Below are positions 5,028 to 44,849 of a stretch of DNA of 44,849 bases, one piece after another. Under the pieces are notes generated by a model. That model did not search any database and was not told the DNA's origin. It saw only the letters and a list, made by a program, of their open reading frames with translations. The translations under genes and the position numbers were made by a program. The stretch lies in the IMG/VR virus record IMGVR_UViG_3300048915_000091. One strand, given 5' to 3'. Source of the stretch: a virus. How positions within the stretch are numbered: the first letter of the stretch is position 1; every line of letters starts with the position of its first letter.

Positions 5028-5275
5028 CGCTTCGCGAATTGATCCACGGGGCGCCGACGCCGCCGAACCCGCCGCAATACGTCGCATGGTATCGCGACGG
5101 CTGGCAAGGTTCGATCCAGTACCTTGCCGCCGAAGTTGAACCGGGCGAATGGGCAACGACTTCGAAGATCGCCCTCGCGCATCGCTTCGACACGCGCGAG
5201 GAAGCCGACGCGGCAACGCCCGACGGGATACTTCGACGCGGCGTCCTTCAGGTACGCGGCAGCCGCGACAGTTGA
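5024..5275 (+). CDS. Hypothetical protein (83 aa)
   Basis: Track ORF. ATGA overlap upstream. A hairpin (5283-5308) lies downstream. Confidence 0.5.
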   Translation: MTLRELIHGAPTPPNPPQYVAWYRDGWQGSIQYLAAEVEPGEWATTSKIALAHRFDTREEADAATPDGILRRGVLQVRGSRDS

Positions 5276-5327
5276 ACCAATGCGAAGGCGGGCTTAGGCT
5301 CGCCTTCGTCGCATAGGGGGACGGCGA

Positions 5328-12529: not shown

Positions 12530-12552
12530 GCGAGCAATCAGGGGTTAACCGA

Positions 12553-14070
12553 ATGCCGAACGTCGTTTTCGTCCATCCCTTGGTTCGCACTTTGCTGCCG
12601 TCGTACGATCTAATTCGCGATTGCTTGGCAGGCGAGTTGACCGTTAAGAAGCGTCGCGAAAAGTATTTGCCGAAGCCTAATGCGGAAGACACTAGCGACG
12701 CAAACGGGAAGCGTTATAACGGATACCTAACGCGCGCCGTATTCTATAACGTTGCGCAGCGAACCCTTGCCGGACTTGTCGGGCAAGTCTTTCTTCGCGA
12801 TCCGACCGTTACCCTTCCGACGCAACTTAGCGTGCTGGAAACCGACGCAACTGGAAGCGGCATTTCGCTTGACCAGCTTGCCCAGGCAGCGACCGGCTTC
12901 GGTATTAGCCACGGGCGTTGCGGCTTGTACGTCGATTATCCGGCGGTCGACCTTGTGACAACCGACGAAGCCTTGGGCGAAGTTCCCGCGTTCACCGTCG
13001 CCGATCTTGAAACCGGCGACATTCGCCCGACGATCAAGCTTGTCGCGCCCTGGGATTGCCTTAACTGGCGCCTGAAGCGGCGAGGGGCAAAGCTTGTCTT
13101 GTCGCTTGTCGTCTTCCGCGAAGATGCGATTATCGAAGACGACGGATTTGAAACAAAGGTTAAGGATCAATGGCGCGTCCTTCGCCTTGACGAAAACGAC
13201 GAATACGTAATCGAAGTTTATCGCAATAAGAACGGCATTGCGCCCGACGAACGGTACGAACCGCGCGATAACCAAGGCAACCGGCTAAAAGACGTTCCGT
13301 TCAGCTTTATCGGCGCGGTCAACAACGATCCGACGCCGGGGCCGATGCCCATGTACGATCTTTGCAGCGTCAATATCGCGCATTATCGTAATTCCGCCGA
13401 TTACGAAGAAGCTGTTTACATGCTTGGGCAACCAACCGCATGGTTCAGTGGCTTGACCGAAGAATGGGTTAAGAACGTAATGGGAGGCACGATCGCGCTT
13501 GGCTCGCGTTCGATTATTCCGCTTCCCGCGTCGTCGTCCGCCGGTTTGCTTCAAGTGCAGCCCAACACTATGGCGAAAGAAGCCATGGATCAAAAGGAAG
13601 CGCAAATGCTCGCGCTTGGCGCGAAGCTTGTCGAAGGCTCGCAAGTTCAGCGTACGGCAACCGAAGCGAACATTGATAACGTTTCGGAAACGTCGGTTTT
13701 GTCGTCGGTTGCAAAGAACGTCGGCGAAGCGTTCGAATGGGCGCTTGGATGGGCCGCAACGTTCGTCGGCGCCGACACAACGACGATCGATTACGATTTG
13801 AACACGGAATTCGATCTAGTTAATCTAACGCCCGAAGAACGTAAGCAATTGCTTGTCGAATGGCAGGCAGGCGGAATTGTCATGGAAGAATACCGCGACA
13901 ACCTTCGCCGGGCTGGCATCGCCTCGCTTGACGACGCGGCGTTTAAGACGAAATCGGCAGCCGAAGAAGCCGATCGCATGGCACAAGCGGTCGAACAAGC
14001 TGCCGCGCTCGCCGCCCCTGGGGGCAATCCGAACAAGACCGATACGCCAGCGACCGGCAACGGTAACTAA
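12553..14070 (+). CDS. Portal protein
   Basis: Internal ATG of track ORF 12517..14070, after AGGGG. About 505 aa, directly after TerL and before a MuF-like gene. N-terminal SYDLIRDCLAGE...YNGYLTRAVFYNV pattern seen in portal families. Confidence 0.8.
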   Translation: MPNVVFVHPLVRTLLPSYDLIRDCLAGELTVKKRREKYLPKPNAEDTSDANGKRYNGYLTRAVFYNVAQRTLAGLVGQVFLRDPTVTLPTQLSVLETDATGSGISLDQLAQAATGFGISHGRCGLYVDYPAVDLVTTDEALGEVPAFTVADLETGDIRPTIKLVAPWDCLNWRLKRRGAKLVLSLVVFREDAIIEDDGFETKVKDQWRVLRLDENDEYVIEVYRNKNGIAPDERYEPRDNQGNRLKDVPFSFIGAVNNDPTPGPMPMYDLCSVNIAHYRNSADYEEAVYMLGQPTAWFSGLTEEWVKNVMGGTIALGSRSIIPLPASSSAGLLQVQPNTMAKEAMDQKEAQMLALGAKLVEGSQVQRTATEANIDNVSETSVLSSVAKNVGEAFEWALGWAATFVGADTTTIDYDLNTEFDLVNLTPEERKQLLVEWQAGGIVMEEYRDNLRRAGIASLDDAAFKTKSAAEEADRMAQAVEQAAALAAPGGNPNKTDTPATGNGN

Positions 14071-31575: not shown

Positions 31576-33537
31576 TTAGAAAAGCCCGCCTTGTTTCGTC
31601 GAACCGAAATACCCTAGATCGCCAAGCATTCCGAAAGCCCGATCGATGTAGTATTCATATGCGATATCGGTCGGGCATTCGTCGGGCAGTTCCATAAGAG
31701 GGCAAGCGCCTTCAGAATTCGGAACCTTGTTGCCGGTTGCGATATAGTTGATTACGCCTTGCACGCCTTGCGCATAGTACCAACGAATTGTTTTGCCTAG
31801 AAAATAGCCGTCTTTATGCGCGCCGCCTCGCACGTTGCGAACGACGACAAAGCGGCGGATATCCTGGCACGCGCGAACCGTCTTTTCGATCGGCGTTCCC
31901 TTCGACAAGAAAGCCTGCACCGCGTCCGAACATATTAACGCTTCGGGGTTTTTCGACATTGCGGAATTTTGGGCCGAACCGCGTTCGGAATACGCGCCCT
32001 TTGCCTTCGTCGAACCGTCTTCCTTGATCGCGATATAATTGTTCACGTCGCGCGAGTAAACGGCGGCGTAACGCGTTTCTTCAGTCTGAAGCGACGTTAT
32101 GCGCTCCCATTCGGCGATAACAGCGCCTAACATATTGCCCATGCGCTTAGGGCACTTGATAATAACGCCGTCGGTATTAGCCGACACGATCGGAATTCCT
32201 GCCGCTTCGATCATTTCGATTAGCTTTAGGATAACAAGCTGGCCCGTTATCGTAACCTGAATTAGAAGATCGGGCGAGAAGATTGACGAATAGAACGACC
32301 CTAGCTTGCCGAAGATGCCGTTAATCGCGATCTTCAATCCTGCCTCTAGCTTGTCCTTCAGCTTCTTCAGTTCCATTCGACGAAGAACAAGCCCGTCGCG
32401 GAAGATTTCAATAAACAGCTTGCCGATATGCTTCGGAAAGAAACCCGAATTGATTATAAGCCAAGGGTAAAACGATACAACGTCGCGGTCGATTAGATCG
32501 GTTTCGTCATCGGCTTTGTGAACTGCCGTCTTCTCGCTGGAATGAAGCCCTCCCATGCCCATTTTATAGACGCAAGAGCCAATCCGTATCGACAGCTTGG
32601 ACAGGGCTTCAGGCATGACCGGGGCGCCGCTGCCGTCCAGCCTAAAGGGGACGGCCTGGACAATCCGCAAGGCTTCCTGAAGCTGTGGATTGTCAAACGA
32701 CAGATATTCCGGCGGCTGATAGAAGAATTCGTAATCGTCCGGCAAATCCGGCTTCTTCGGCGAGAAGCCGCGCGCTTCGCGTATCTTCGCGTTAATGAAC
32801 GCTTCGCCCACCTGGGCATCGGATTTCGAACGGATATCCTGATTGATTTCGGCGCCCAACCGCTCGCGCAATTCGACATGCGGCTTTAGCCCGTATGTGG
32901 GGTGCGAGTATAAAAGTTCGGTATTATCAAGATCGTTGAAACAATAATCTCGCGTATCAATCACGTCTTGCGGCGACAAATCCGAATGCGGATCGATCGG
33001 CAATTCCTGCATTCGCTTGCAATGAAGCCGGGCAGCATAAAGCTTCAACGAACCTTCAAGCGGTGCGACTTCGATCAAGTCGATATGATTGTACGGCGCC
33101 CGCCAATTCGCCTTGCGTTCGTCGCGAATGATTATGTCGTCGCTAAGTTCCTTCAGTTCGTACAGCGTCGCACCTTTGCAAGCCGCTTCGATCATCGGGA
33201 TATCGTACGAAATCGAGTTAAACCCGATAATCTTGAACCAATGCAACGCCCTATGCAGTTCGGTTCGCATCCATTCGGGAAGCGGACCTTCGCCGCAGTG
33301 TTCGACGTAAAAATATTCTCCGGTTCCAATGTTCTTAAAGGCGCAAAGGAAGTAGTTTCGATAACATTCAACGTCGAAAACGACTTCGGTTCCGACAGAA
33401 TAATTCCACGGCGAAACGCTGAACTTGCGCAAAACCGGCGAGTACGACAGGCGCTTTAGAACGCCGTCGTATCGCTTGGCTTTGCGCTTCGTCGGAAGCG
33501 GCGCGTAATCGTCTAACGTTGAATTGTCAAAGAACAT
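31576..33537 (-). CDS. DNA polymerase with 3-5 exonuclease, family-B-like motifs
   Basis: Track ORF of 653 aa. Exo motifs are FDVECY, GFNSISYDIPMI and YCFNDLDNT. Pol motifs are DVVSFYPWLI (DxxSLYPS-like), KIAINGIFGKLG (KxxxNSxYG-like) and SANTDGV (DTD-like). The C-terminus is KQGGLF. Confidence 0.85.
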   Translation of the reverse strand: MFFDNSTLDDYAPLPTKRKAKRYDGVLKRLSYSPVLRKFSVSPWNYSVGTEVVFDVECYRNYFLCAFKNIGTGEYFYVEHCGEGPLPEWMRTELHRALHWFKIIGFNSISYDIPMIEAACKGATLYELKELSDDIIIRDERKANWRAPYNHIDLIEVAPLEGSLKLYAARLHCKRMQELPIDPHSDLSPQDVIDTRDYCFNDLDNTELLYSHPTYGLKPHVELRERLGAEINQDIRSKSDAQVGEAFINAKIREARGFSPKKPDLPDDYEFFYQPPEYLSFDNPQLQEALRIVQAVPFRLDGSGAPVMPEALSKLSIRIGSCVYKMGMGGLHSSEKTAVHKADDETDLIDRDVVSFYPWLIINSGFFPKHIGKLFIEIFRDGLVLRRMELKKLKDKLEAGLKIAINGIFGKLGSFYSSIFSPDLLIQVTITGQLVILKLIEMIEAAGIPIVSANTDGVIIKCPKRMGNMLGAVIAEWERITSLQTEETRYAAVYSRDVNNYIAIKEDGSTKAKGAYSERGSAQNSAMSKNPEALICSDAVQAFLSKGTPIEKTVRACQDIRRFVVVRNVRGGAHKDGYFLGKTIRWYYAQGVQGVINYIATGNKVPNSEGACPLMELPDECPTDIAYEYYIDRAFGMLGDLGYFGSTKQGGLF

Positions 33538-33546
33538 AACGAAGCC

Positions 33547-34815
33547 TTAGAACGGCACGTCGTCATCGTCAATATCAACGAAGCCGGGGACCGTGCCCAC
33601 GATAGCCGCCCAAGGGTTCGCCGGATCGCCCGCCGGGGCTTCAGCGGTCGACGGTTCGGGAACGCCCCAGGTGCCCGCCTGAACGCCGCTGCGCAGGGAT
33701 GCGAAGGCTTCGCCGACTTGCTCCCCCGTCGCGCCTTCGGGCAGCGTCCAAGCCGCCACGACGGCAGGCGGTTCCGGGGCAGGCTCGCGCGCTTCGGCCC
33801 GCGCCTTCATAATGCAGCCGCGAAGGCTTCCGGTTTCGTCGAAGAAAAACGCGCGATCGTCATTCGACGTGTAATCAAGTTGGGCGCAAACGGGTTCGAT
33901 TGATCGGAACAGCTTCGCCGTGAACGAATGCCCTTTTTGCAAACCCGGAACGTCAAACGTCGCGCCGTAAACCGGGCTTCCGAAGTCTTGGTACTTGTCG
34001 TACGTCGACTTAACCTTTTCGTCGTGGAAGTGGATAAGCCCGTCTTTGCTGAAGCTTTCCACGGCCTTGACGGCTTCGAACAATCCTTCTGGCACCGGGG
34101 CCGGATAAGCGGGATAATTGAAAAGGTGCGAAGTTTCCGGCCATTTGTCGCCGTACTGTTGCGTTTTATACCAAGAGCCGTCTTCGAAATAGAACGTAAC
34201 CGACTTGTTCGAGAAGCCGAAGCCTTCAAGCTTCTTTCCGCAACCCGCCACGGCTGCCGCGAACGTCTTTGGGATCACAAGCCCCGGCGGAAGGTCAATG
34301 CCGTGCCAATATTCGAAGATTACCTTACCGTTCGTCGAAGTCATCGAATTAGCTTGAAGCAACACCGACACTTCAACAACGCGCTCGCCTTCGTTGTCGA
34401 TAAGCGGCAACAGCCGGGCGAACCCGTCCTTCAGCCGATCGTCAATCGCAGCGCACCGGGGATCGGGCATCGCCTGGGGGATTTGATCGCCCGCAAGGCA
34501 AGGAACCGTCGCGCGAATACGATCGCCTTTGACTAGCAGCGTACCGTTTTCGTTTTCGGTTAGCGCGAGCGTCGAACCGGCCCGGTTCAAGGCGTCGATA
34601 AAGCGCCCGATATGTGGGCAAAGGGCAAGTTCTTCTTCGACGCTATGCCCGGCGGAAAATACGCCGTCGGTTGCGGTTATCATCTTGCCAGCTAGGCGAG
34701 CGTGCGCCTTGTACGCTTCTTCGCCGTCTTTGTACGCGGGCGCAATGAAGTTCAACGCTTCGGCGAGTTTCGACGCCGCTTCGGATTTTGCCTTGCGGCT
34801 TGGACGCTTTGCCAT
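33547..34815 (-). CDS. DnaN-like sliding clamp fused to an SSB-type linker and acidic tip
   Basis: Track ORF of 422 aa. MITATDGVFSAG, LLVKGDRIRATVPCLAGDQIP, TSTNGKVIFEYW, LVIPKTFAAAV and WYKTQQYGDKWPETSHLF parallel E. coli DnaN segments. The C-terminus is ...VDIDDDDVPF. Confidence 0.6.
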   Translation of the reverse strand: MAKRPSRKAKSEAASKLAEALNFIAPAYKDGEEAYKAHARLAGKMITATDGVFSAGHSVEEELALCPHIGRFIDALNRAGSTLALTENENGTLLVKGDRIRATVPCLAGDQIPQAMPDPRCAAIDDRLKDGFARLLPLIDNEGERVVEVSVLLQANSMTSTNGKVIFEYWHGIDLPPGLVIPKTFAAAVAGCGKKLEGFGFSNKSVTFYFEDGSWYKTQQYGDKWPETSHLFNYPAYPAPVPEGLFEAVKAVESFSKDGLIHFHDEKVKSTYDKYQDFGSPVYGATFDVPGLQKGHSFTAKLFRSIEPVCAQLDYTSNDDRAFFFDETGSLRGCIMKARAEAREPAPEPPAVVAAWTLPEGATGEQVGEAFASLRSGVQAGTWGVPEPSTAEAPAGDPANPWAAIVGTVPGFVDIDDDDVPF

Positions 34816-34816
34816 T

Positions 34817-35023
34817 TCAATTGCCCTTTCGCTGTACGGCGACGGCCCAAGTTCCGCGAAGCGTTTCGGGAACGTCCCCGCGAAACTCGAATTTCAACGT
34901 AACCGCTTCAACGTCGTACCCGTCGGGAACATTAGCGTCGGCGTCGGCATACATTGACATTCCTTCAAGAATGTTTCGCCCGAAATTCTCGCAAAAGTCG
35001 CGATCAACTTCAATCTTTGCCAT
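34817..35023 (-). CDS. Hypothetical protein (68 aa)
   Basis: Track ORF. GAAAGG SD. Its stop and the clamp ATG are 1 nt apart (TGAAATG). Confidence 0.45.
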   Translation of the reverse strand: MAKIEVDRDFCENFGRNILEGMSMYADADANVPDGYDVEAVTLKFEFRGDVPETLRGTWAVAVQRKGN

Positions 35024-35026
35024 TGT

Positions 35027-35239
35027 TCAGCCTTTCAGTTCGAAACATTCGCAACCGTATGCGATAACTCGCGCGGGCGGTCGCTGCCCGTTCAGTCGGC
35101 AGGCTTCCGACGGTTCGTCGAAGTTCCTGCAAAGGACGCAAGTTCGCGCCGTCTTGATTACATATCCGGCAAGACATTCGGCCATATAGCGCGAAAGGTC
35201 CGCTATCCCTTCAGGGCTGCGATTGCGCCAATCGGTCAA
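35027..35239 (-). CDS. Small Cys4 protein (70 aa)
   Basis: Track ORF. TTG start overlaps the helicase stop (TTGA). CVLCRNF-x8-CRLNG-x10-GCECF has the same spacing as the C-terminus of the nuclease at 36984..37886. Confidence 0.5.
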   Translation of the reverse strand: MTDWRNRSPEGIADLSRYMAECLAGYVIKTARTCVLCRNFDEPSEACRLNGQRPPARVIAYGCECFELKG

Positions 35240-36987
35240 AATTCATATCCTAACACTTGGGGATTTTTAGTGTTCAACCAAACCCGAATGCGGCGAGGCG
35301 TGCGAAGGTATCCGGCATTTGCGAGAATTTCGGCGTTGCTTTCCGGCGGTTCGACGGGCGCCCGTTGGCGAAACCAATCGCGACCCTTCTTCCTGGGGAA
35401 GCCGTCACCTTCGACCGTAATCCATTCGTAAAAGGTCCGAAGATCGGCGGTAAAGTACGAAACCTTAATTGACGCTCTGCCGGACGAACGCGACGTATGC
35501 GGCGAATACACGACGCGTAAAACGTCGAAGTATTCGACAACCGGCAAATCGGACCTAAGAAGTTCTTCGTTGCTGGAAGTGCCGTCGATATTCGGCCCTT
35601 CGTATTGAATGTCGAATGTTTCCCCACAAACAACGCATTCTTTGGCTGTAGTGTGAGCGTAGGCCCCGCAACCGGCTTGCTTGTCTATCATCTTGCCGAC
35701 TGAACAAATCTTAACAGGCGCATCGCCCGGCTTGCCGTTGCCTTTCGGTTTCGGGATTACCGGATCATTGATCGGCCCCAGGCGGCGCGTATTGCCAGCG
35801 AAGTCCAACACTAAGCAATGATGCTTAATGAATTCGAAACCGGGGATATACTGTTGCGGGTTCGTATAGTCGTACGGGCGCGTTCCTCGCCCTAGCATCT
35901 GAACCCATAGCCCGGTTGACATAGTTGGCCGAAGCATGGCGATTAGATCAATCGGGGGATGATCGAAGCCCGTCGTAAGAATGTCTTTGTTGACAATACA
36001 ACGCAACTCGCCGCGCTTGAACGCCGCAATAATTTCGTCGCGCTGCCCCTGGGGCATCTTTGAATGAACCGCAGCCGCCGGAACGCCGAAGGTCGACCGC
36101 AGCATTTCCGCGATGTGTTCGGCGTGTTCAATGCCGCTCGCGAAGATAAGCCAAGATCGCCGCTGCATTCCCTGTTGAACGACTTCGCAAAGGGCTTCGT
36201 ACGTAATGTCGTCTTTGTCGACGGCAGCTTGCAATGCGCCTTCGATAAAATCGCCAGTCGACGACATGCCGACGCCCGATACGTCAAGTTCGGTCGCCGT
36301 TTTCTTCGGGAAGATCGGGCAAAGGTAACCTTCGGCAATAAGGCGCGAGAAACCTTGAATATCGCAAAGGTTGTACGCAATGTCGGTAAATATCGGCCCG
36401 TTCGTTAAAAGCCCCATGCCTAGACGATAGATTGTCGCACTAAGTCCAATGATCTTCAGATAAGGATTGATCGCCTTTAGCTGAAGGATGAAGTCGCCGT
36501 AAGAACTATCCGCCGAAGGTCCAACTAGGTGCGCTTCGTCGATAATCATTAGATCGCGAAAGCCGAAGATCGAACGCCCGTCTTCGTCGACGCCGCGAAC
36601 CATCGATTTAACGCCGCCGAAGATGATCGGTTGTATGAAGTCCTTTTGCTTTAGCCCGGCGGAATAGATACCAAGCGGCGCATTCGGCCAAACCCTTTGA
36701 AGTTGCTTCGCGTTTTGTTCGATCAACTCTTTGACGTGAGTTGACATGATAACCCGCGTTTGGGGAAACACGTCGTACACTCGCCGAAGAAACTTCGCGA
36801 TAACGAACGACTTACCTGTTCCCGTCGGCAGGGCGATAAGCGGGTTCGCTTCGATCGGGCGCCCTTCGAAGTCGGTTCCGCCGTGTTCGTCGAAGTACCG
36901 AAAAAGCGTATCAACCGCTTCCTCTTGATACCATCGATCAAGCGACGGCCCGCCGTTGTGCCCGATTGTCGCGAACGGCGCGTTCAT
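35236..36987 (-). CDS. Superfamily 2 DEAD/DEAH-box helicase
   Basis: Track ORF 35236..37065. I prefer the ATG at 36987, which forms an ATGA overlap with the nuclease stop. The alternative is 37002. Motif I is LPTGTGKS, motif II is IIDEAHLVG and motif VI is QMLGRGTR. Confidence 0.85.
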   Translation of the reverse strand: MNAPFATIGHNGGPSLDRWYQEEAVDTLFRYFDEHGGTDFEGRPIEANPLIALPTGTGKSFVIAKFLRRVYDVFPQTRVIMSTHVKELIEQNAKQLQRVWPNAPLGIYSAGLKQKDFIQPIIFGGVKSMVRGVDEDGRSIFGFRDLMIIDEAHLVGPSADSSYGDFILQLKAINPYLKIIGLSATIYRLGMGLLTNGPIFTDIAYNLCDIQGFSRLIAEGYLCPIFPKKTATELDVSGVGMSSTGDFIEGALQAAVDKDDITYEALCEVVQQGMQRRSWLIFASGIEHAEHIAEMLRSTFGVPAAAVHSKMPQGQRDEIIAAFKRGELRCIVNKDILTTGFDHPPIDLIAMLRPTMSTGLWVQMLGRGTRPYDYTNPQQYIPGFEFIKHHCLVLDFAGNTRRLGPINDPVIPKPKGNGKPGDAPVKICSVGKMIDKQAGCGAYAHTTAKECVVCGETFDIQYEGPNIDGTSSNEELLRSDLPVVEYFDVLRVVYSPHTSRSSGRASIKVSYFTADLRTFYEWITVEGDGFPRKKGRDWFRQRAPVEPPESNAEILANAGYLRTPRRIRVWLNTKNPQVLGYEF

Positions 36988-37886
36988 ACAATCCGGCGCC
37001 ATTGTGGGCAGCCCTGGGGGACTAACTCGCGCTGAATGATGCCGTCGAAGATGCGACAATGCCACTCGCCCCCGTCGACGGGCGAAGCGTGTTCACAGCT
37101 TCGGCAATTGACTTCGGGCGCGGCCCCGTGATGGCATATCGGCGAATAGTGGCAAAGCTTGCATTCGCCGAACGCGGCGCTTTGCGCGATCTTCGCGGGC
37201 GGGATTTGGCTGAAGATCACGCGGCCCGCCTTTTCGTACAAGCGAACGCCGTGGTTGAAATCAAGTTGAATGATTTCGAAATAAAGTTCGTCGGTTTCCT
37301 TATTGACGGCACAATACAGCCCGTACGGCAAAGCGTACGCCTGCCCGTACGACGACATTTGCGAGAAATGCACCGGCTTCGACTTGCGCATACCTTCAGC
37401 CTTAGCCGTGTTGCGCGTCAATACTGGCCATTTCGAAGTGATCGGCCCTGCAAGCTTGGCGAATGACTTTTCGTTATGCGTTTTGAATTCGACAAGCAAC
37501 GGCCCCGGCAAGCCATAGCGCACGGGAGCAATTGCGATGCCGTCAAGGGAACCGCCATAATGCCCCATATGTCCGCTGATTTTGTATTGTTTGCCGTCGG
37601 CGTCGAACTCGAAAACTTCAAAGCCAATCCGACGAAGCCGCTTAATAAATTTCGGTTCTTCGTAATGACCGCGCTTAAACAGCCGGTGCTTTCGCCCGTC
37701 GTGCTTTTCCTGCCGAAGCCAACGAAAGCCCGCCCAAAGCTGCATTTCGCAAGGCTTGCCGATTTCGGAACCGCCAAGATGCCAGCGCGGCCCTTCTTCG
37801 TATTCGGCAACGCTATCGGCTTCGACTTCCGCGCTTATAGTCGCGGCGAGCCTTTCGCGTTCCGTTTGAAACGACAAGTCGAACAC
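36984..37886 (-). CDS. Cas4-like PD-(D/E)XK nuclease with Fe-S cysteines and an extra zinc ribbon
   Basis: I use the in-frame GTG at 37886, placed after AAAGGGGA, instead of the track start at 38399, which would run through the SSB gene. Motifs are GSLDG...LVEFKT (D..E.K), an N-terminal C, and CKLCHYSPIC (C-x2-C-x5-C). Confidence 0.75.
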   Translation of the reverse strand: MFDLSFQTERERLAATISAEVEADSVAEYEEGPRWHLGGSEIGKPCEMQLWAGFRWLRQEKHDGRKHRLFKRGHYEEPKFIKRLRRIGFEVFEFDADGKQYKISGHMGHYGGSLDGIAIAPVRYGLPGPLLVEFKTHNEKSFAKLAGPITSKWPVLTRNTAKAEGMRKSKPVHFSQMSSYGQAYALPYGLYCAVNKETDELYFEIIQLDFNHGVRLYEKAGRVIFSQIPPAKIAQSAAFGECKLCHYSPICHHGAAPEVNCRSCEHASPVDGGEWHCRIFDGIIQRELVPQGCPQWRRIV

Positions 37887-37971
37887 GTCAAATCCCCTTT
37901 GTCGGACTGTGCCAGTAAGGCGAACGGCAGTCGTACCCGTTCGATTACGTCGGGGGACGCCCGGCACGGCC

Positions 37972-38001
37972 CGACAAAGGGCAGGGACCGAAGCCCCTGC
38001 C
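37972..38001 (-). terminator. Hairpin/attenuator after the SSB gene
   Basis: On the minus strand, GGCAGGGGCTTCGGTCCCTGCC is followed by CTTTGTC. The U-tract is weak. Confidence 0.45.
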
Positions 38002-38010
38002 GATTGACGC

Positions 38011-38727
38011 TTAACGCTGGCCCCAACCGGGCGCCCCGCCGCCGGAACCCTGCGACCAAGCCTGTTGACCATTGCCGCCCGCTGCCGCGCCGCCGCCCTG
38101 GGCACCGGCCCCGCCGCCTTGCGCGCCCCAACCGCCGCCGGTTGTCTGCCCGCCCTGGGGCTGTTGTCCCGGCTGGCCCTGCGCAGCACCGGCGCCCGGC
38201 TGGAAACCGCCGCCCGGCTGACCCTGGGGCTGCTGGCCCTGGGGATTGCCGCTTGCGCCGCCAAAGCCTGCCGAACCGCCGCCAAAGCCGCCGCCCTGCT
38301 GCGCACCGGCACCGGCCTTGTTCGGTTCGTTGCCGTTGATATCGTAAAGCTTGCCGATCTTTGTACGGTTGGCGTTGCGTTCGTCGGGATCGGGGGCAAT
38401 GTCGACGACGAACGGCTTCCCGTGCAGTTCTTCGGTTGCCTGGAAGCGGAAGACGCCGATTACGTGACAATACGCCGAAAGCTGCCCGTTAGCGATACGA
38501 ACCGTGTCGGGGTTCTTGTTGTGAAGGTTCAGGCGGTCGATATGCTGAACGCCCTTCGCCGGACCATCGATCGCTTCAAGCGTAAGTGCGAGAAAACCGC
38601 CGGTTCCGTCCTTAGTCGGCTTCAGTTCGCTCCCCACAATAACGACGGGATGCTTGCCGACGGGCAGTTGCGAGCCGCCGCCGTACGACGGATCGATGCC
38701 GTTGCTATCAAACTGGAATGCAGGCAT
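38011..38727 (-). CDS. ssDNA-binding protein (DUF669-like) with about 100-aa Gly/Gln-rich tail
   Basis: Track ORF. Strong initiation region GAAAGGAAGTCAAATG. An OB-like N-terminal about 135 aa sits next to a Sak4-like ATPase, as in many phage recombination modules. Low-complexity GGGFGGG/QGQQPQG tail. Confidence 0.65.
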   Translation of the reverse strand: MPAFQFDSNGIDPSYGGGSQLPVGKHPVVIVGSELKPTKDGTGGFLALTLEAIDGPAKGVQHIDRLNLHNKNPDTVRIANGQLSAYCHVIGVFRFQATEELHGKPFVVDIAPDPDERNANRTKIGKLYDINGNEPNKAGAGAQQGGGFGGGSAGFGGASGNPQGQQPQGQPGGGFQPGAGAAQGQPGQQPQGGQTTGGGWGAQGGGAGAQGGGAAAGGNGQQAWSQGSGGGAPGWGQR

Positions 38728-38742
38728 TTGACTTCCTTTCGA

Positions 38743-39717
38743 TTATACGTCGCGATTGAAAAGATCGATTGCCCCGCCCGTCGCGACGTTTACGGCGTTG
38801 GCGATTTGGTTCCACGAATGCCCTGCGATCAAATTCGAAGGCGTACCCTGGGGAGCCGTTGGAAGCGGGATTTCGCCGGATATGCCGAAGCGGTTGCCTG
38901 CGACATACGACGGCTTGCGAACAACGCCCGCAACTCGCCCTTGGTTCATTGAAGTAGCCTGTTGAATTTGATCGCCCTTCGTAATGAACATTGGTTCATG
39001 AACAAACGCGATCATATCCGCCCATTGCGTCAACATTTCGCGTTTGCCGTAGTTCTTATTATTCTTCGGCGAATGCAAGAGCAAATCCCAAGCGTCATAT
39101 TCGCCGAACGCGGGATCGATCGCCTTCGACGCAAAAACATGCGCGGTGAAGATTACGTTAATGCCGCCGTAAAACGCTAGTTCGTCAAGTGCGGTCAACA
39201 GCTTGCCGAACTGTTCGTTCGCATAGCCGTACGCCTTGCCGTATCCTCCTAGCGCGCTTTCCATTGTAACGCCCTTGGGATTGCCCGGCTTGTAATCCTT
39301 GTCGCTCGCAATCGTCTTTTCGTGAATGCGCTGTTCGGTCGCCGTGGCGCTATCGAGTACGATCGATCGGAAGGGGAATTGCCCCGCCTGGGCACGGCGC
39401 TTGATATCGTCGACCGTCGCAAGCAATTCGTCGAACGTTTCGATTTGCTTCGTCTTCGGAACGACGATTGATCCATATCCCATTTCAAGAGGGATCAACA
39501 GGGCGCTCGGCGCCCCGCAAGCGAGCGTTGTCTTGCCGATCTTTTCAACGCCCGACACGACGATACGTGCGCCGACTTGCCGCGTTACGCTTTCGATCGT
39601 GTCAAGCGCGCTCTTGCCCGGCGCCTGGGGAGCGAAGCCGCCGAACGCTGCCGCGTTGTTTGTGGGCTGCCCGAAACCGGGATTGTTCGCGCCTAGGGCG
39701 TCGGCAAAAGCGTTCAT
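38743..39717 (-). CDS. Sak4-like RecA-fold AAA ATPase
   Basis: Track ORF 38743..39762. I prefer the ATG at 39717 (TAATG junction). Walker A is SGVEKIGKTT and Walker B-like is SIVLDSAT. Confidence 0.75.
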   Translation of the reverse strand: MNAFADALGANNPGFGQPTNNAAAFGGFAPQAPGKSALDTIESVTRQVGARIVVSGVEKIGKTTLACGAPSALLIPLEMGYGSIVVPKTKQIETFDELLATVDDIKRRAQAGQFPFRSIVLDSATATEQRIHEKTIASDKDYKPGNPKGVTMESALGGYGKAYGYANEQFGKLLTALDELAFYGGINVIFTAHVFASKAIDPAFGEYDAWDLLLHSPKNNKNYGKREMLTQWADMIAFVHEPMFITKGDQIQQATSMNQGRVAGVVRKPSYVAGNRFGISGEIPLPTAPQGTPSNLIAGHSWNQIANAVNVATGGAIDLFNRDV

Positions 39718-39959
39718 TAGTTCATTGCCTTTCGTGCAGCGGTGCAAGCTTCGCAGTTGCAACCTTCCTTCGGCGTCGGCTTTCCGAACAACAAATCGAA
39801 TAAATCGCCGCCTTCAAGATCGTCAAGCGAAACGATCACAACGCGCGGCGGTTTCGAACTTTCAATTTCGGCTAGTTCGTCGACGATAGGCTTTGCCTTC
39901 GCGTCGTATTCTTCCTGCAACGCGCGCAATTGCTCTTTCAGTTCCGTTTCACGGTCCAT
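39717..39959 (-). CDS. Hypothetical coiled-coil protein (80 aa)
   Basis: Internal ATG of track ORF 39717..40133, preceded by AAAGGAACCGGCACT, a variant of the start-associated sequence. MDRETELKEQLRALQEEYDAKAKP... Confidence 0.5.
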   Translation of the reverse strand: MDRETELKEQLRALQEEYDAKAKPIVDELAEIESSKPPRVVIVSLDDLEGGDLFDLLFGKPTPKEGCNCEACTAARKAMN

Positions 39960-40056
39960 AGTGCCGGTTCCTTTCAGGAAGTGCCGGGGCAGGTACGTTG
40001 CCCTTTTTGAATGCCCGTACCCTGCCCCGGCGCCCGTGGTGCGACCCGTCGGGCTA

Positions 40057-40680
40057 TCAGCGAAGCGCCGCCTTCGGTTCCTTGATTTCCAGCGACGGCG
40101 AACCGGGCGTAATTTCGAGGATTTCGTCGACAAGCTTCTTCACGGCGCTATGCGTTGGAAGCGAAGCGTCAAGCTTATTATATTCGGACTTGCTGAAGTC
40201 CGCCTTCCAAACGATAATACGTTCGACAAGGAACTTGCCTTCGTTGCCCAAGGCTTCGCACTTGTCTTCGACGGCTTCGATTGCTTCAACGTCGCCGCGA
40301 AGCTTATAGTTCAGCTTATGGCCAAGCTTCAGCATATAGCCGCCGCCTAGATCGTGATTGTTAACGCCTTCCTTCGGCGTCGGGAAGACGTACGCGCCGA
40401 CCGCCTTGCGAATTTCCATTTCGGAATTCTTGGCAGCTTCAAGCGTCGCTTTGGCGGCTTCCCAACGCTTCAAGAGCATATCGCGAGCGACTTCATTGAA
40501 CGGTGCGCCTTCGACAGCGCCGACGATAGTGCAACCTTCCGCGTGTTCGCAACACGAATTCGCAGGTTCGTTAAACGGCGTTTCGATCCGAAGAAAAGCA
40601 ACGTTGTTGCAGTTCGGCGCATCGCACATTGCGACCGACGGCGCCGACGGTTCGGCGGTTGCAGGGGTTCCCCATGCCAT
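40057..40680 (-). CDS. Hypothetical protein (207 aa), first gene of the leftward replication operon
   Basis: Track ORF. AAAGGAATTCAAATC upstream. Cys-rich N-terminus followed by a helical region. Family not recognised. Confidence 0.6.
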   Translation of the reverse strand: MAWGTPATAEPSAPSVAMCDAPNCNNVAFLRIETPFNEPANSCCEHAEGCTIVGAVEGAPFNEVARDMLLKRWEAAKATLEAAKNSEMEIRKAVGAYVFPTPKEGVNNHDLGGGYMLKLGHKLNYKLRGDVEAIEAVEDKCEALGNEGKFLVERIIVWKADFSKSEYNKLDASLPTHSAVKKLVDEILEITPGSPSLEIKEPKAALR

Positions 40681-40839: not shown

Positions 40840-41049
40840 ATGACAACCCCTAGCGATAGCGTGCCGCTGCTAGAGCGGACGCTTTATCTTGTGAACAACG
40901 CGCCCCGATCGATCACGTTCGCCGAAATGGCGAGGCAAATCGACGTTTCGCCTTCATGGGTAAGCGCGTTCGCAAAAGACCTTATTCCCGACCCTGGCGT
41001 TCGGAAGGTTCAAGCGTTGCATGATTACCTTTCAGGGCTGCAAATCTAA
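40840..41049 (+). CDS. Small helix-turn-helix DNA-binding protein (69 aa)
   Basis: Internal ATG of track ORF 40354..41049. SITFAEMARQIDVSPSWVSAFAKD is a plausible HTH. TAATG junction with the primase gene. Confidence 0.55.
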   Translation: MTTPSDSVPLLERTLYLVNNAPRSITFAEMARQIDVSPSWVSAFAKDLIPDPGVRKVQALHDYLSGLQI

Positions 41050-43421
41050 TGGCGTTCGATGCAATCCCTTCCGAAATGCGCTTTTACCGCCAATGGATCG
41101 TGTGGCGGCTGGAAGATCAAGGCGGGCCGAAACCGACGAAGGTTCCGTACTCACCTATCGTCGCTGGCGCTAAGGCTGCCGTCGACAAGGCGTCGACCTG
41201 GGGCACGTTTGAAGACGCCTTGCGCGCGTTCGATAGCGGCGCCTTTAGCGGTATCGGCTTCGTCCTTACCGACGATGATCCTTACGTTTTTATCGACCTT
41301 GACGACCCCAAGGGCGACGACGAAATCTTTCAACGTCAACAGCGCATCTTTCACGAAATCCAATCGTACGCCGAACGCTCGCCATCGGGCACCGGCTTGC
41401 ACATCATTGGCAAGGGCAGCATTCCGCGCGGTCGCAAGCGGGCGCAAATCGAAATCTATTCAAACCTTCGCTTCATGACCATGACCGGCGACGTTTATCG
41501 CGACGCGCCGATTATCGAATGCCAAGATGCGGCAATGTTGCTTTGGCATCAAATGGGCGGACCGGCTTCGATCCACCAATACGGCGGCAACGCCGAACAG
41601 AAAGAAGACGACGCAAGCGTTATCGGTAAGGCGCTGTCTGCCCTGAACGGCGACAAGTTCCGCGCGCTGTACGAAGGCGATTGGGAAAGCCTTTACGCCT
41701 CGCAATCTGAAGCCGATTTCGCGCTTGTCGATATCGTCGCGTTTTATACGCAAAACCGCGATCAAATCGCACGCATCTTCCGCGCGTCGAAGCTTGGCGA
41801 GCGCGACAAAGCGAAGCGCGACGATTACGTTTCGTACATGGTGAACAAGTCGTTCGATCGGCAGTTGCCCGAAATCGATATCGAAGGGCTAAAGGTCCAG
41901 TTCGACGACCTTTTGCAGCCGGAAGAACAGATTGAATTGCCGGGGTTCCTGAACGGTAACGGGGCGGTGGAAGGACCAACCGCCCCGACCGATGCGGAAC
42001 CGGGCAGGACCGCGCTTCAGGCGACGCCACAAGTCGCACAAGGCCCTGAAGGCGTCAACCCGTCCGACATAATTTTACCCCCAGGCTTGCTAGGGGAAGT
42101 CGCGAACTTCATTTACGAAGCCGCGCCGCGTCCAGTGCGTGAAATTGCCCTAGTCGGCGCGATCGGCCTTGTTGCCGGTATTGTGGGCAAGGCGTTCAAC
42201 ATATCAGCAACCGGCCTGAATATGTACGTCCTTTGCCTCGCCCCAACGGGCACGGGTAAAGAAGCCATCAACGCGGGCGTATCGAAGTTGATTAGCGCGT
42301 GTCTGCCGACGTGCCCCGTAATTGCCGATTTCGTCGGACCGGGCGAAACACGATCGGACGCGGCGCTTATCAAATGGCTCGCCCGTCAACCTTGCGTGTT
42401 CAGCGTACAAGGCGAATGGGGAATGCGTCTAAAACAGATGGCAAGCCCGTTCGCGAACTCGAACGAAATCGGCGTTAAGAAGGTCGTAATGGACCTGTTT
42501 AACAAGTCCGGTCACGGCAACATCCTAAACCCGATGGCGTATTCGGATAAGGATAAGAACACGCCGCCGATCGCCGCCCCTTCATTTACCCTAATCGGCG
42601 AAAGCACGCCCGAAAAGTTTTACGAAGCCCTTGACGAAGGCATGATTGCCGACGGCTTCCTTCCTCGCTTCCTAACGATCGAATATCAGGGCAAGCGGCC
42701 CGCTATGTCCAAAAGCGCGGCATATGCGAAACCGTCGTTCGCCCTAATCGATATGGTCACCGAACTAACCGCGCACGTCAAACAGGTTATGTCATCGGGC
42801 GGCGTCGTTCAGGTGCGAGCCGATCCATACGCCGAAAAGCTGCTAGACGACTTCGACAAGTTTGCAGATGCCCACATTAACGACGGTCAAGCAAACGAAG
42901 TCGTTCGGCATATGTGGAACCGTGCGCACGTCAAGGCGCTGAAGCTTGCCGCCCTGGTCGCCGTTGGCCAGTACCCGTACGATCCCTGCATTGATATCGA
43001 CGCGGCCCGTTGGGCTTGCGATCTTGTCGCTCGCGATATCGTGTCTGTCATCAACCGCTTTCAAACCGGCGACATTGGCGCTGGCGTCATGGGCACGACC
43101 GAAGCGAAGCAAGTCGCGGATATGGTTCGCGCAATCTCGCGTTGGGCGAAGGACGAAACCGGGCAGGAAGCGGCTAAGTACGGCATACCGGGCAATATGC
43201 ACGCGGCAGGCGTATTCCCGTTGTCGGCGCTAACGCAAAGGCTCTTTCAGCTTGCGTCGTATCGCAACGATAAGGTCGGCGCGACAAATGCGATCAAGCG
43301 CGCATTGCAGCATTTGTTAGATGCCGATGATCTTCGCGAGTTGCCGCGTAAGCAAATGCAAGACACATTCGGAACCGCCGCACGCGCATTCGTAATATCG
43401 AAACCGCAGAATTTTGTATAG
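41049..43421 (+). CDS. Primase-polymerase (AEP) fused to PriCT-like and DUF3987-type helicase/NTPase domains
   Basis: Track ORF of 790 aa. AEP motifs are FIDLDDP and SPSGTGLHI. QSEADFALVDIVAFYT is PriCT-like. Walker A is APTGTGKEA. Confidence 0.85.
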   Translation: MAFDAIPSEMRFYRQWIVWRLEDQGGPKPTKVPYSPIVAGAKAAVDKASTWGTFEDALRAFDSGAFSGIGFVLTDDDPYVFIDLDDPKGDDEIFQRQQRIFHEIQSYAERSPSGTGLHIIGKGSIPRGRKRAQIEIYSNLRFMTMTGDVYRDAPIIECQDAAMLLWHQMGGPASIHQYGGNAEQKEDDASVIGKALSALNGDKFRALYEGDWESLYASQSEADFALVDIVAFYTQNRDQIARIFRASKLGERDKAKRDDYVSYMVNKSFDRQLPEIDIEGLKVQFDDLLQPEEQIELPGFLNGNGAVEGPTAPTDAEPGRTALQATPQVAQGPEGVNPSDIILPPGLLGEVANFIYEAAPRPVREIALVGAIGLVAGIVGKAFNISATGLNMYVLCLAPTGTGKEAINAGVSKLISACLPTCPVIADFVGPGETRSDAALIKWLARQPCVFSVQGEWGMRLKQMASPFANSNEIGVKKVVMDLFNKSGHGNILNPMAYSDKDKNTPPIAAPSFTLIGESTPEKFYEALDEGMIADGFLPRFLTIEYQGKRPAMSKSAAYAKPSFALIDMVTELTAHVKQVMSSGGVVQVRADPYAEKLLDDFDKFADAHINDGQANEVVRHMWNRAHVKALKLAALVAVGQYPYDPCIDIDAARWACDLVARDIVSVINRFQTGDIGAGVMGTTEAKQVADMVRAISRWAKDETGQEAAKYGIPGNMHAAGVFPLSALTQRLFQLASYRNDKVGATNAIKRALQHLLDADDLRELPRKQMQDTFGTAARAFVISKPQNFV

Positions 43422-43640
43422 TATTGTAGGGCGTTTATAGGCTGAAAGCCGCAGAAATCCGCCAATTTGTATGTTTTGTAGGTTGTATGGCCATTGTGTG
43501 ATTGGAGACCATCCCATGCCCGGCCTGATAGTGAATTTCCTCTACCCCTTATATACAAACATACAAAATATACAAAATGGCAGATTTCCAAGGGTTTAGC
43601 TATACAATGATCCATACAATACAATACAAAGGAACCGCCG
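43400..43640. repeat. AT-rich iteron block: TTGTA(T/G) x5 on the left, ATACAA x7 on the right (candidate origin)
   Basis: TTGTA at 43414, 43424, 43467, 43476 and 43483, plus TTGTG at 43494. ATACAA at 43553, 43561, 43570, 43602, 43614, 43619 and 43624. The duplicated unit GAAA(C/G)CCGCAGAA is at 43400 and 43444. Confidence 0.6.
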
Positions 43641-43694
43641 AAGGGCTAAACGAACGATCGATCGTATATCCGATAAAAATTTTGTCGATTTCGC

Positions 43695-43723
43695 TTGACA
43701 GGTACGACGAATGCGATTAGACA
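43695..43723 (+). promoter_or_regulatory. Sigma70-like promoter TTGACA-N17-TAGACA
   Basis: TTGACA at 43695-43700, a 17-nt spacer and TAGACA at 43718-43723. Upstream of the 43752 gene. Confidence 0.4.
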
Positions 43724-43751
43724 GGGGTTATCAAGACCGAAAGGACGACCG

Positions 43752-43970
43752 ATGTTGGAACCATGGTATATCAAACACGATCGCAAGGTTATCGCGAATA
43801 TGCGCCGCGTTATCGAAGGCAAGGGCGACAACGAAACCGTTCGTTACTTGGGCGATCAACTTCCGGTTCTTGTTTCGGAAGTGAAGCGCCGGATTGTCGA
43901 GCGCGAAGCGCGTATTGAAGCCGATATTGCCAAGTTCAACGAAGTCGGCGGCGATTACGACAAGATGTAA
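43752..43970 (+). CDS. Hypothetical protein (72 aa)
   Basis: Internal ATG of track ORF 43695..43970, after an AAAGGA SD. Confidence 0.5.
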   Translation: MLEPWYIKHDRKVIANMRRVIEGKGDNETVRYLGDQLPVLVSEVKRRIVEREARIEADIAKFNEVGGDYDKM

Positions 43971-43994
43971 TGTGGGCACAAGGAAGCAATATCG

Positions 43995-44546
43995 ATGCAA
44001 GGTGCGAAGGTTGTTCCGATTGATAAGGCGACAGCCGATCGATTGATTGTCGCTAGGCATTATAGCAAGCGCGCTTCGATCTTTTGGAAAGGCTTCGCGC
44101 TTGTGTTCGACGGGCGCGTTTATGGCGTTGTCGTGTACGGGCAGCCTTCTCCGCCTATTCAAAAGCATTCGTTTAAAGATCGCGATTTTCGCTTGTACGA
44201 ATTGTCGCGCCTTGTCATTCAAACAACGAAGCGCAACGCGGCGAGTTACCTTGTCGCGCAAAGTTTGAAGATGCTCGAACAGCCTTGCGCGGTTGTGTCG
44301 TATGCCGATAGCGAACACGGGCACGCGGGCATTGTCTATCAAGCGACGAATTGGATTTACACCGGCGCGACGAAATCGCACGATCATGCCTATCTTGTCG
44401 ACGGCAAGCGCGTTCATCCGATTTCGCTTCGTGACAAAGGGATAACCGATCCGAAGCGATGGGCGAAAGAAAACGGGATCAAGACGTTACCCCCCCTGCG
44501 ACAAACATCGTTATTTCTTCATTTGCGGCAATCGTCGGCAGCGTAA
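43995..44546 (+). CDS. Mom-like GNAT-fold DNA modification protein (as read; probably continues to 44655 after a +1 shift at C7 run 44490-44496)
   Basis: Track ORF. ARHYSKR, ELSRLV, VVSYADSEHGHAGIVYQATNWIYTG match my recollection of the family annotated as Mom-type adenine-modifying enzymes. The +1 frame gives DKHRYFFICGNRRQRKDMLAKLTYPIVAEYPK... Confidence 0.55.
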   Translation: MQGAKVVPIDKATADRLIVARHYSKRASIFWKGFALVFDGRVYGVVVYGQPSPPIQKHSFKDRDFRLYELSRLVIQTTKRNAASYLVAQSLKMLEQPCAVVSYADSEHGHAGIVYQATNWIYTGATKSHDHAYLVDGKRVHPISLRDKGITDPKRWAKENGIKTLPPLRQTSLFLHLRQSSAA

Positions 44547-44651
44547 GGACATGCTTGCAAAGCTGACATATCCGATCGTTGCGGAATATCCCAAGCTTCC
44601 GAAATCGATGTATGAAAACGGCGATTTCGTCGAAATCTTGCACGAAACCGC

Positions 44652-44680
44652 TTGACAGCGAAACGCAATCGTCGTAACCG
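44652..44680 (+). promoter_or_regulatory. Sigma70-like promoter TTGACA-N17-TAACCG
   Basis: TTGACA at 44652-44657, a 17-nt spacer ending ATCGTCG and TAACCG at 44675-44680. Confidence 0.4.
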
Positions 44681-44707
44681 TTGGATATCAAGACGGAAGG
44701 AACGAAG

Positions 44708-44842
44708 ATGCCTTATTCGGAACTCGCCTACTTCGAAGGATACGCCTTCGCTCACATCGCCGCTTTCGAAGAACGCGAACGCCTCGCGCGCAAGAAAGCC
44801 ATTGCGATCGCACATCGCGACCGCCGCAGCCATCGCCGCTAA
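44708..44842 (+). CDS. Hypothetical small protein (44 aa) spanning the repeat
   Basis: Read by eye after GGAAGGAACGAAG: MPYSELAYFEGYAFAHIAAFEERERLARKKAIAIAHRDRRSHRR. Its last 120 nt are duplicated at window positions 1-120. Confidence 0.45.
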   Translation: MPYSELAYFEGYAFAHIAAFEERERLARKKAIAIAHRDRRSHRR

Positions 44843-44849
44843 GGGGAAG
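44723..44849. repeat. Terminal direct repeat, right copy (identical to 1-127)
   Basis: Exact match to the first 127 nt of the window. Confidence 0.95.

Follow-up and report, generated by a model that had tools for sequence, protein, structure and literature searches.

Directly downstream of the primase-helicase gene in the viral record IMGVR_UViG_3300048915_000091 (IMG/VR; hereafter the window, i.e. the whole stretch of 44,849 nucleotides that was analysed) lies a dense array of short repeats in two opposed sets, and the question is what this array is for and which protein reads it. A preliminary description of this DNA had suggested an iteron-type origin tied to the primase-polymerase (prim-pol)/helicase, and after comparison of about 130 related loci this is the best-supported explanation: the 216-bp array (43414–43629) is probably a replication origin of the self-loading primase-helicase kind. 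The evidence consists of the array itself, its uniqueness in the genome, its conservation among relatives, the concerted and lineage-specific change of its motif, and the co-variation of that motif with three residues in the C-terminal domain of the primase.

The window contains 27 copies of the hexamer TTGTAT, whereas 10.5 ± 3.4 are expected, and none of 100 shuffles reached this number. Ten of the 27 fall within 43414–43629, three on the plus strand followed by seven on the minus strand, where they read ATACAA. Counted as the pentamer TTGTA/TACAA, the array contains 12 copies in 216 nt as compared with 0.34 expected from the genome-wide rate, while the runner-up 250-nt window holds 4; a density beyond chance, as the preliminary description had put it, is thus borne out. 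The five TTGTA and one TTGTG of the left arm and the seven ATACAA of the right arm, three of them head-to-tail, were all recovered (positions in Table 1), and their orientation is strict, every left-arm copy lying on the plus and every right-arm copy on the minus strand. The total is 12–13 sites, beginning on the primase stop codon (43414–43421); as the primase open reading frame (ORF) spans 41049–43421, the first repeat overlaps its last codons and its stop. The array segment is the GC minimum of the genome in windows of 100, 240 and 500 nt, in agreement with the claim that it is the AT-richest part, and the GC-richer centre of about 55 nt proved to be 54 nt long (43499–43552) with 50% GC, against 41% and 29% in the left and right arms. 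The palindrome noted earlier, ATGGCCAT, is present at 43487–43494, and the longer unit said to be duplicated in the left arm was found as AAACCGCAGAA at 43401 and AAGCCGCAGAA at 43446, and as GTATTGTAGG at 43421 and GTTTTGTAGG at 43473. The array had been placed directly after the primase gene, which is correct (stop at 43421), and near the switch of transcription direction, which is loose, the divergent switch lying at ~40.7 kb, 2.7 kb upstream.

For comparison, about 170 loci encoding homologues of the primase were fetched from IMG/VR, metagenomes, assemblies and phage records (up to 80 per collection, of roughly 800 homologous loci). A signature detector, defined as an exact pentamer triple at 7–10-nt spacing with at least three inverted copies within 330 nt, was applied to the 1.8 kb that follow the primase stop and gave a positive result in at least 49 of 108 distinct loci, as against none of 133 block-shuffled controls. 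Run over the whole window it found the array only, with nothing in shuffles, and over the whole genome of Pseudomonas phage 73 it found position 36850 only. Sphingomonas phage Birtae and Pseudomonas phage 73 share the architecture downstream of the orthologous primase gene. Primase and array are separated by one or two small genes in roughly half of the positive loci, and the array is intergenic, ahead of small genes. A nucleotide search of phage records matched only the primase gene (~67% identity) and never the array.

In many relatives the layout begins directly past the orthologous stop codon. The left side consists of 2–3 motif copies, a conserved spacer element and 2–3 further copies; the centre, 55–110 nt long, is rich in G or C runs; and on the right side three reverse-complement copies, spaced by 8 and 9 nt, are followed by the mirrored spacer and by further copies ~54 nt beyond the third. 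At the left outer position, relatives carry 2–3 copies of their lineage's own motif. The right inner triple, with its 8/9-nt spacing and a lineage-specific core, was found in 29 listed loci and is the best-conserved part of the architecture. The right-arm spacings of +8, +9 and +54 are shared by L001, L002, L013, L015 and the window, in which the last right outer copy likewise lies 54 nt from the third inner copy. In several relatives the outermost right copies are flipped.

Alignment of the close relatives reduced the repeat to a unit TA-T-NNN-A, in which the flanks are invariant and the middle three bases vary, switching together in all copies of both arms. That both arms change in concert speaks for a sequence-specific protein with a specificity that shifts from one lineage to the next. 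The core is TACAA in the window, L171, L173 and L011; TTAGA in L170, L001, L013 and Birtae; TTAAA in L174, L012 and L090; TACTA in L176, L003, L006 and L157; TTATA in a large group including Pseudomonas phage 73; TCCTA in L015; and TTCTA in L002. Other cores also occur, so that the fixed geometry accommodates at least ten motif variants.

Some individual loci are worth noting: 1) In Pseudomonas phage 73 (L180, NC_007806) an unannotated GTATAA/TTATAC array lies at 36685–36930, between gp037 and gp038; no array is present directly after the primase stop, the array being one gene further on, ~0.95 kb past the stop with gp037 intervening. 2) The Birtae array, at ~33690–33890, is also unannotated. 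3) In Variovorax phage VCLv21 (L178, 4050–4290) an AlpA/Xis-like helix-turn-helix (HTH) gene has been inserted after the primase stop, ahead of the array, and the primase-array junction therefore tolerates gene insertion. 4) In the Rhodobacter phage RcTitan (L009), the region directly after the primase stop (5255–5310) holds only a short cluster of TTCGAAAT-like repeats and no full array. 5) The centre keeps GGTCCG in 7 of 10 close relatives, where the window has GCCCGG instead, and GTG(T/A)G follows immediately after the last left repeat in the window and in L170–L175. 6) The 91-kb contig JGI24146J20443_1000093 carries the primase gene twice, ~45.7 kb apart (L143 and L144), and looks like a concatemer assembly of one phage genome.

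The two arms of the window array also form an extended imperfect inverted repeat that includes non-repeat sequence, 43445–43484 pairing with 43558–43597 (40 nt, 80%) and 43413–43431 with 43612–43630 (19 nt, 89%). Because the arms pair beyond the repeats, a single strand folds far better than shuffles (RNA z = -5.9 for the plus and -4.7 for the minus strand; single-stranded DNA z = -6.5). Function might accordingly be sought in the long hairpin itself, as a structured RNA, a terminator or RNase III site, or a DNA stem-loop like that of plasmid pRN1, whose 100-nt stem-loop origin follows the prim-pol-helicase gene; the repeats would then be no more than paired arms. Over 31 relatives, however, the median z is -1.6, with 8 below -3 and several at or above 0, and the long hairpin was rejected as a conserved feature since the potential for it is not kept among them. 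Pairing also leaves unexplained the recurrence of one pentamer 5–7 times per arm and the flipped orientation of the outer right copies seen in several relatives. Scans of the whole window for tRNA and tmRNA genes and against Rfam (at the gathering score) gave no match. A function residing in the hairpin is therefore very improbable, and the non-coding RNA locus that had been listed as an alternative loses its footing, with no Rfam match and no conserved hairpin potential.

As to which protein reads the repeats in an origin, co-variation was examined for two candidates, the HTH protein encoded upstream of the primase and the primase itself. The HTH protein, together with an array bound by it, had been among the earlier suggestions. 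It was rejected as the binder: L170 (TTCTAA) and L171 (TTGTAT) have near-identical HTH regions and different motifs, so that this protein is not the specificity factor. For the primase, identity to the window over the core (residues 1–650) is 82% in L170 (TTAGA), 79% in L171 (TACAA), 70% in L001 (TTAGA) and 68% in L173 (TACAA), followed by loci at 65% (TTATA), 65% (TTAAA), 62% (TACAA) and 61% (TACTA). The motif classes are thus interleaved with core similarity, and it is a helix near the C-terminus, residues 725–735, that sorts by motif: T..(L)FQ accompanies TACAA (4/4), S..(V/C)LQ accompanies TACTA (4/4), T..L(M/A)A accompanies TTAAA (3/3), N..L(M/V)A accompanies TTAGA (3/4), and Q..L(V/A/I)(A/S) accompanies TTATA in most members.

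All 790 primase columns were then scanned over 21 loci for disjoint residue sets between motif classes. Motif position 4 (A/G/T) is separated by column 729 alone (1/790), and positions 2–3 (AC vs TA) only by columns 613, 733 and 734, as compared with a mean of 0.04 such columns for random partitions of matching size; 1000 three-way trials yielded none. With seven loci added, giving 30 with register-aligned motifs, mutual information ranked column 729 first for position 4 (1.16 bits; next 0.91), columns 734 and 733 tied first for position 2, 733 first and 734 third for position 3, and 733 first and 729 fourth for the whole motif. Residues 729, 733 and 734 stand at i, i+4 and i+5 and so share one helix face. 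For L173 (primase P0009), TTGTA was predicted from the helix before the DNA was read, and was confirmed; L157, L074, L023, L110, L119 and Pseudomonas phage 73, with arrays 0.6–1.6 kb from the gene, were found afterwards to fit the rule. These comparisons indicate that the sites are very probably bound by the C-terminal domain of the primase, and suggest that this domain of the initiator sets origin specificity, with exceptions in Birtae, L175 and L087. The prim-pol N-terminal domain, which had also been named as a possible binder, is not the part that the motif tracks. One further relative bears on this point: primase P0001, from a JGI contig of 44,422 nt, is 94% identical to the window protein and has SAISKALMQRASFRTD in place of SALTQRLFQLASYRND in the helix of the C-terminal domain, from which a different, non-TTGTA repeat is predicted in a very close relative.

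It is conceivable that another phage or host protein, e.g. the small HTH or an AT-hook protein, binds the sites and that the co-variation with the primase is a by-product of linkage or shared ancestry. Co-variation was examined for the primase and the HTH protein only, the shuffling controls ignore phylogeny, and in the window the codons of the C-terminal domain lie less than 200 nt from the array. Against this, the HTH protein does not track the motif, the best columns fall on one helix of a domain of DNA-binding type with each mapping to a different base, and the rule is also obeyed in loci with a gene between primase and array. Nor is there a contiguous recombination block: by sliding nucleotide identity, the window is nearer to L171 than to L170 at 43213–43312, which includes the helix codons, and not at 43313–43408. 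Since the latter stretch is not closer to L171, a single swapped block does not explain the association, and block recombination as the sole cause of the co-variation is not supported. We regard a different binder as distinctly unlikely.

The primase-helicase matches Pfam families PF22763 and PF13148, corresponding to an NrS-1-type prim-pol with a helix-bundle domain and a DUF3987/MCM-like AAA+ helicase. Among PDB sequences, residues 6–257 match PriRep5 of the Staphylococcus aureus pathogenicity island (SaPI) SaPI5 (7OLA, E = 8e-30), and the NrS-1 primase-polymerase is matched as well. In the full-length AF2 model (pLDDT 80), the N-terminal part resembles the NrS-1 prim-pol (Foldseek E = 1e-13) and the central part MCM and ORC/Cdc6 AAA+ proteins (E = 1e-5 to 1e-4). 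Modelled alone, the C-terminal domain (about residues 700–790; pLDDT 86.7) consists of a strand, helix 725–733, a long helix 742–758 and a strand-helix-strand wing, with S1-H-H-S2-S3 topology. Its 50 best PDB neighbours are nearly all winged helices (MarR, Fur, cullin WHB, the MCM6 C-terminal domain, F93 and RTP). By its domains, a prim-pol, an MCM-like helicase and a winged-helix-like C-terminal domain, the protein is of an initiator type.

The spacer elements form the other conserved component. The left one is conserved in the alignment as GAAA.CCGCAGAAA.CCGCCA whatever the repeat type, with GCTAAGTGAYTGAAAA at this position in more distant relatives. The right one, ATGGCAGATTTCCAAGGGTTTAGC in the window, corresponds to the conserved WWWWCARNNRCTTAGS of relatives, e.g. 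ATTTTCAATGACTTAGC, and in 20 of 29 loci it lies at a fixed +14 from the third inner repeat. The IHF consensus WATCAANNNNTTR is matched there at 8–9 of 9 positions in 16 of 29 loci, the 95th percentile of the background being 7; by our own count, the window right spacer ATTTCCAAGGGTTTAG matches at 7 of 9. The window array contains no strict IHF consensus site within one mismatch. Because the window element is degenerate and has no such site, bending by a host protein at the spacer can be suggested with low confidence only, and a conserved phage factor acting there is equally possible.

Several observations weigh against the array being an origin read by the C-terminal domain in this way: i) the winged-helix assignment is weak, with a best Foldseek E-value of 0.12, and a profile search of PDB sequences with the domain gave no match, so that the modelled fold class, for want of a significant structural or sequence match, is likely but not proven; ii) the co-varying helix precedes the long helix that would be expected to be the canonical recognition helix; iii) the partition controls do not preserve phylogeny, and the significance of the co-variation is therefore overstated; iv) Birtae has TTAGA with S729 rather than N, and TTATA is found with Y729 in L175 and S729 in L087 rather than with Q; v) in most genomes the codons of the C-terminal domain and the array are physically linked, and module exchange could contribute to the association of motif and residues; vi) the centre, with 50% GC, is not AT-rich, unlike that of a SaPI origin; vii) the IHF-like element is degenerate in the window itself; and viii) the local minimum of the whole-genome GC skew at 43067 (maximum at 31584) is confounded by gene orientation. 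The skew plot had been recommended as a check; as the skew follows gene orientation, it decides nothing and was not used as evidence. As to the exceptions in iv), the array of L172 (12376–12640), whose primase has S729, is degenerate and mixes TTAGA-, TTAAA- and TTATA-type copies; since G, A and T are thus mixed at motif position 4, Ser729 seems not to discriminate there.

A second use of a bound array would be regulation. As an operator, it would be bound by the C-terminal domain to regulate transcription, either by ending or attenuating read-through out of the primase operon or by acting on the promoter-like box GCTTGACA at 43693 and thereby on the downstream early genes. The array does lie between a gene end and this box, about half of the positive loci have it one or two genes downstream of the primase and always intergenic ahead of small genes, and co-variation speaks to the specificity of binding and not to its effect. 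However, about 12 sites over 216 bp in mirror sets with bend-like elements go far beyond what an operator needs, the layout matches known helicase-loading origins, the array is the AT-richest DNA of the genome, and the binder would be a primase-helicase in an operon that is already headed by a separate HTH repressor-like gene. An operator function is unlikely on these grounds.

Terminase small subunits bind arrays of short repeats, sometimes inverted and with a bend site, as at lambda cosB. A packaging site (pac or cos), here bound by the small terminase, had been offered as an alternative, and Birtae-type genomes are reported to be terminally redundant without defined ends. The genes for the terminase small and large subunits (TerS and TerL) are, however, located at 10387–12529, ~11.7 kb downstream of the array on the circular map, and in all relatives the array comes after the primase gene, with whose product it co-varies. 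We give this possibility hardly any credence.

An origin of this kind has well-characterized parallels. In SaPI origins, 6–12 iterons of five or six nucleotides follow directly on rep, equally divided between the two sides of an AT-rich centre (PMC9371898). At least two iterons per side point in opposite directions; the iterons are read by the C-terminal winged helix of Rep, a self-loading hexameric helicase, and origin specificity varies between elements (PMC9371898). The phage array similarly lies immediately 3' of the initiator ORF, in two opposed sets with the right number of iterons, and every sequence-level feature of a SaPI origin is found in it except the AT-rich centre. In SaPI5 PriRep5 the primase is likewise fused to the helicase, and its primase domain is homologous to that of the window protein (7OLA); the helicase and C-terminal domain of the latter are without sequence match to 7OLA. 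The phage system also differs in the G/C runs of the centre in relatives, in the splitting of each arm by a conserved spacer element, and in belonging to a lytic siphophage rather than to a satellite.

The minimal replicon of pRN1 consists of a repressor gene, a prim-pol/SF3 helicase/winged-helix gene (orf904) and a stem-loop just downstream (PMC4234260). According to its authors it has no iterons and requires an intact stem-loop; their model places two rings there, and they note that Bordetella phages BIP-1 and BPP-1 have a comparable stem-loop 3' of their replication genes (PMC4234260). Both the NrS-1 and the pRN1 prim-pols prime at 5'-GTG-3' (PMC8718748). The operon order of pRN1, a small repressor gene followed by a prim-pol/helicase/winged-helix gene with a long inverted repeat just downstream, is that of the window; in the phages, though, the repeats are conserved and the hairpin is not. 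In phage P4 alpha, a single chain holds a primase, an SF3 helicase and, at the C-terminus, a winged-helix domain that binds short origin repeats in both orientations (PMC4234260). The window system resembles it in having one polypeptide with primase, helicase and winged-helix-like C-terminal domain, and repeats in both orientations. The P4 primase is of the Toprim and not the archaeo-eukaryotic primase (AEP) type, and P4 needs two separated repeat regions, ori and crr.

In SV40 large T and papillomavirus E1, inverted pentamer or hexamer sites direct the head-to-head assembly of two SF3 hexamers. These proteins of eukaryotic viruses differ in having an origin-binding domain of another fold, N-terminal to the helicase, and no primase domain. 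Classical iteron plasmids (RepA, pi, TrfA) resemble the window in having initiator-binding repeats beside the initiator gene and, often, the participation of host bending proteins. They differ in having 17–22-bp direct repeats flanked by DnaA boxes and an AT-rich unwinding element, and in loading the host DnaB, whereas here the units are 8–9 bp long and arranged in mirror sets, no DnaA box with up to one mismatch was found at 43300–43800, and the initiator carries its own helicase. Most likely, the origin strategy known from SaPI islands, P4 and pRN1 is used here across a large phage family with lineage-specific sites.

From this pattern we infer physical binding, the number of oligomers, bending, the site of melting and origin activity itself, and propose the following mechanism. 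Each arm would offer about six copies of the 8–9-bp unit TA-T-NNN-A (here T-ACA-A, or TTGTA on the left arm), the two arms facing one another over the 54-bp centre. These sites would be bound by the 790-aa prim-pol/MCM-like helicase, the product of the gene directly upstream, through its winged-helix-like C-terminal domain, residues 729, 733 and 734 on one face of helix 725–735 reading the three variable bases. One oligomer, presumably a hexamer, would assemble on each arm in mirror orientation, and the spacer element of each arm, IHF-like in relatives, may bend the DNA and so bring outer and inner sites to one ring. The centre, in a role that is inferred only, is proposed to lie between the two initiator assemblies. 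Melting would then set in at the AT-rich arms or at the centre, the prim-pol domain would prime, and two forks would depart in opposite directions.

A more far-reaching possibility, which we put forward tentatively and consider rather doubtful as a whole, is that residues 729, 733 and 734 constitute a readable recognition code, that private initiator-origin pairs act as incompatibility barriers, and that a previously unrecognised axis of diversification results. In such a code, residue 729 would read position 4 (T for A, N for G and Q for T, with S permissive), and residues 733/734 would read positions 2–3, F or L with Q specifying AC and a small residue with A or S specifying TA. Origin specificity would then be predictable from protein sequence and open to re-engineering, the barriers would stop co-infecting relatives from using each other's initiator, and the axis of diversification would run through a phage family that includes Pseudomonas therapeutic phages.

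The origin reading by itself provides a concrete candidate origin and initiator domain for a family of roughly 43–46-kb siphophages that includes Septimatrevirus (Pseudomonas phage 73, Kakheti25), Vexovirus birtae and many metagenomic relatives, and would extend the SaPI/P4/pRN1 strategy, in conserved form, to lytic phages of proteobacteria. We found no earlier description of an origin for Septimatrevirus or Vexovirus/Birtae in the searchable literature, subscription journals lying outside its coverage. The at least ten motifs in fixed geometry, paired with three protein positions, form a natural specificity series in which specificity change of a winged helix could be studied. Orthogonal replicons and the prediction of cross-replication between co-infecting phages are possible uses, and the same unannotated element can be marked in deposited genomes, as in phage 73 and Birtae at the positions given above.

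The features of the locus are listed in Table 1, together with the terminase genes.

Table 1. Coordinates of the repeat array, its proposed initiator and other features of the window
Feature	Position	Strand	Remark
TerS gene	10387–10917		~11.7 kb downstream of the array on the circular map
TerL gene	10883–12529
HTH gene (69 aa)	40840–41049	+	PHROG transcriptional repressor match, E = 6e-6
Primase-helicase gene (790 aa)	41049–43421	+	Proposed initiator
Codons of helix 725–735 (SALTQRLFQLA)	43221–43253	+	Includes T729, F733 and Q734, which co-vary with the variable repeat bases
Left outer repeats	43414–43429	+	TTGTAT (43414), TTGTAG (43424); first overlaps primase stop codon
Left spacer element GCTGAAAGCCGCAGAAATCCGCCAA	43441–43465	+	Mirror partner of the right spacer element (inverted repeat)
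Left inner repeats	43467–43499	+	TTGTAT (43467), TTGTAG (43476), TTGTAT (43483), degenerate TTGTGT (43494)
Centre (54 nt)	43499–43552		GTGTG at left edge; from composition and alignment
Right inner triple	43553–43575	-	ATACAA at 43553, 43561, 43570 (TACAA at 43554, 43562, 43571); 8-/9-nt spacing, within unit TA-T-NNN-A
Right spacer element ATGGCAGATTTCCAAGGGTTTAGC	43577–43600	-
Right outer repeats	43602–43629	-	ATACAA at 43602, then overlapping head-to-tail at 43614, 43619, 43624 (TACAA at 43603, 43615, 43620, 43625)
Promoter-like GCTTGACA box	43693–43700	+
First downstream gene (72 aa)	43752–43970	+	Right boundary of the non-coding region

The ends of the window are identical, 1–127 being the same as 44723–44849 (a circular-assembly overlap), and because of this terminal overlap of 127 nt the window represents a complete phage genome of 44,722 bp. 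Genes on the plus strand run from ~40.8 kb past the window end to 31.5 kb, and a block on the minus strand (31576–40680) encodes a DNA polymerase, a processivity factor, an SF2 helicase, a Cas4-like exonuclease and an AAA_24 protein. At 10387–14070 the genes for both terminase subunits, small and large, and for the portal protein are found. The HTH gene, whose stop overlaps the primase ATG (TAATG), is conserved ahead of the primase gene in 97 loci and is the small regulator of the replication operon. The array itself sits in the 330-nt gap between the primase stop at 43421 and the next gene at 43752, the 72-aa product of which has no family match.

In addition to the box at 43693, GCTTGACA occurs on the plus strand at 44650 and 4684, each box being followed by a ...CGTCGTA-like stretch and located ahead of small early genes, and boxes resembling it also follow the arrays of relatives. 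These boxes are probably early promoters of the phage; the count of 6 against 2 expected is marginal only. A promoter/terminator consensus scan of 43000–44849 gave fewer matches than shuffles and is therefore uninformative. Two genes downstream of the array, a Mom-family gene (43995–44546, plus strand; Pfam PF25680, E = 3e-28) suggests DNA modification of the phage genome.

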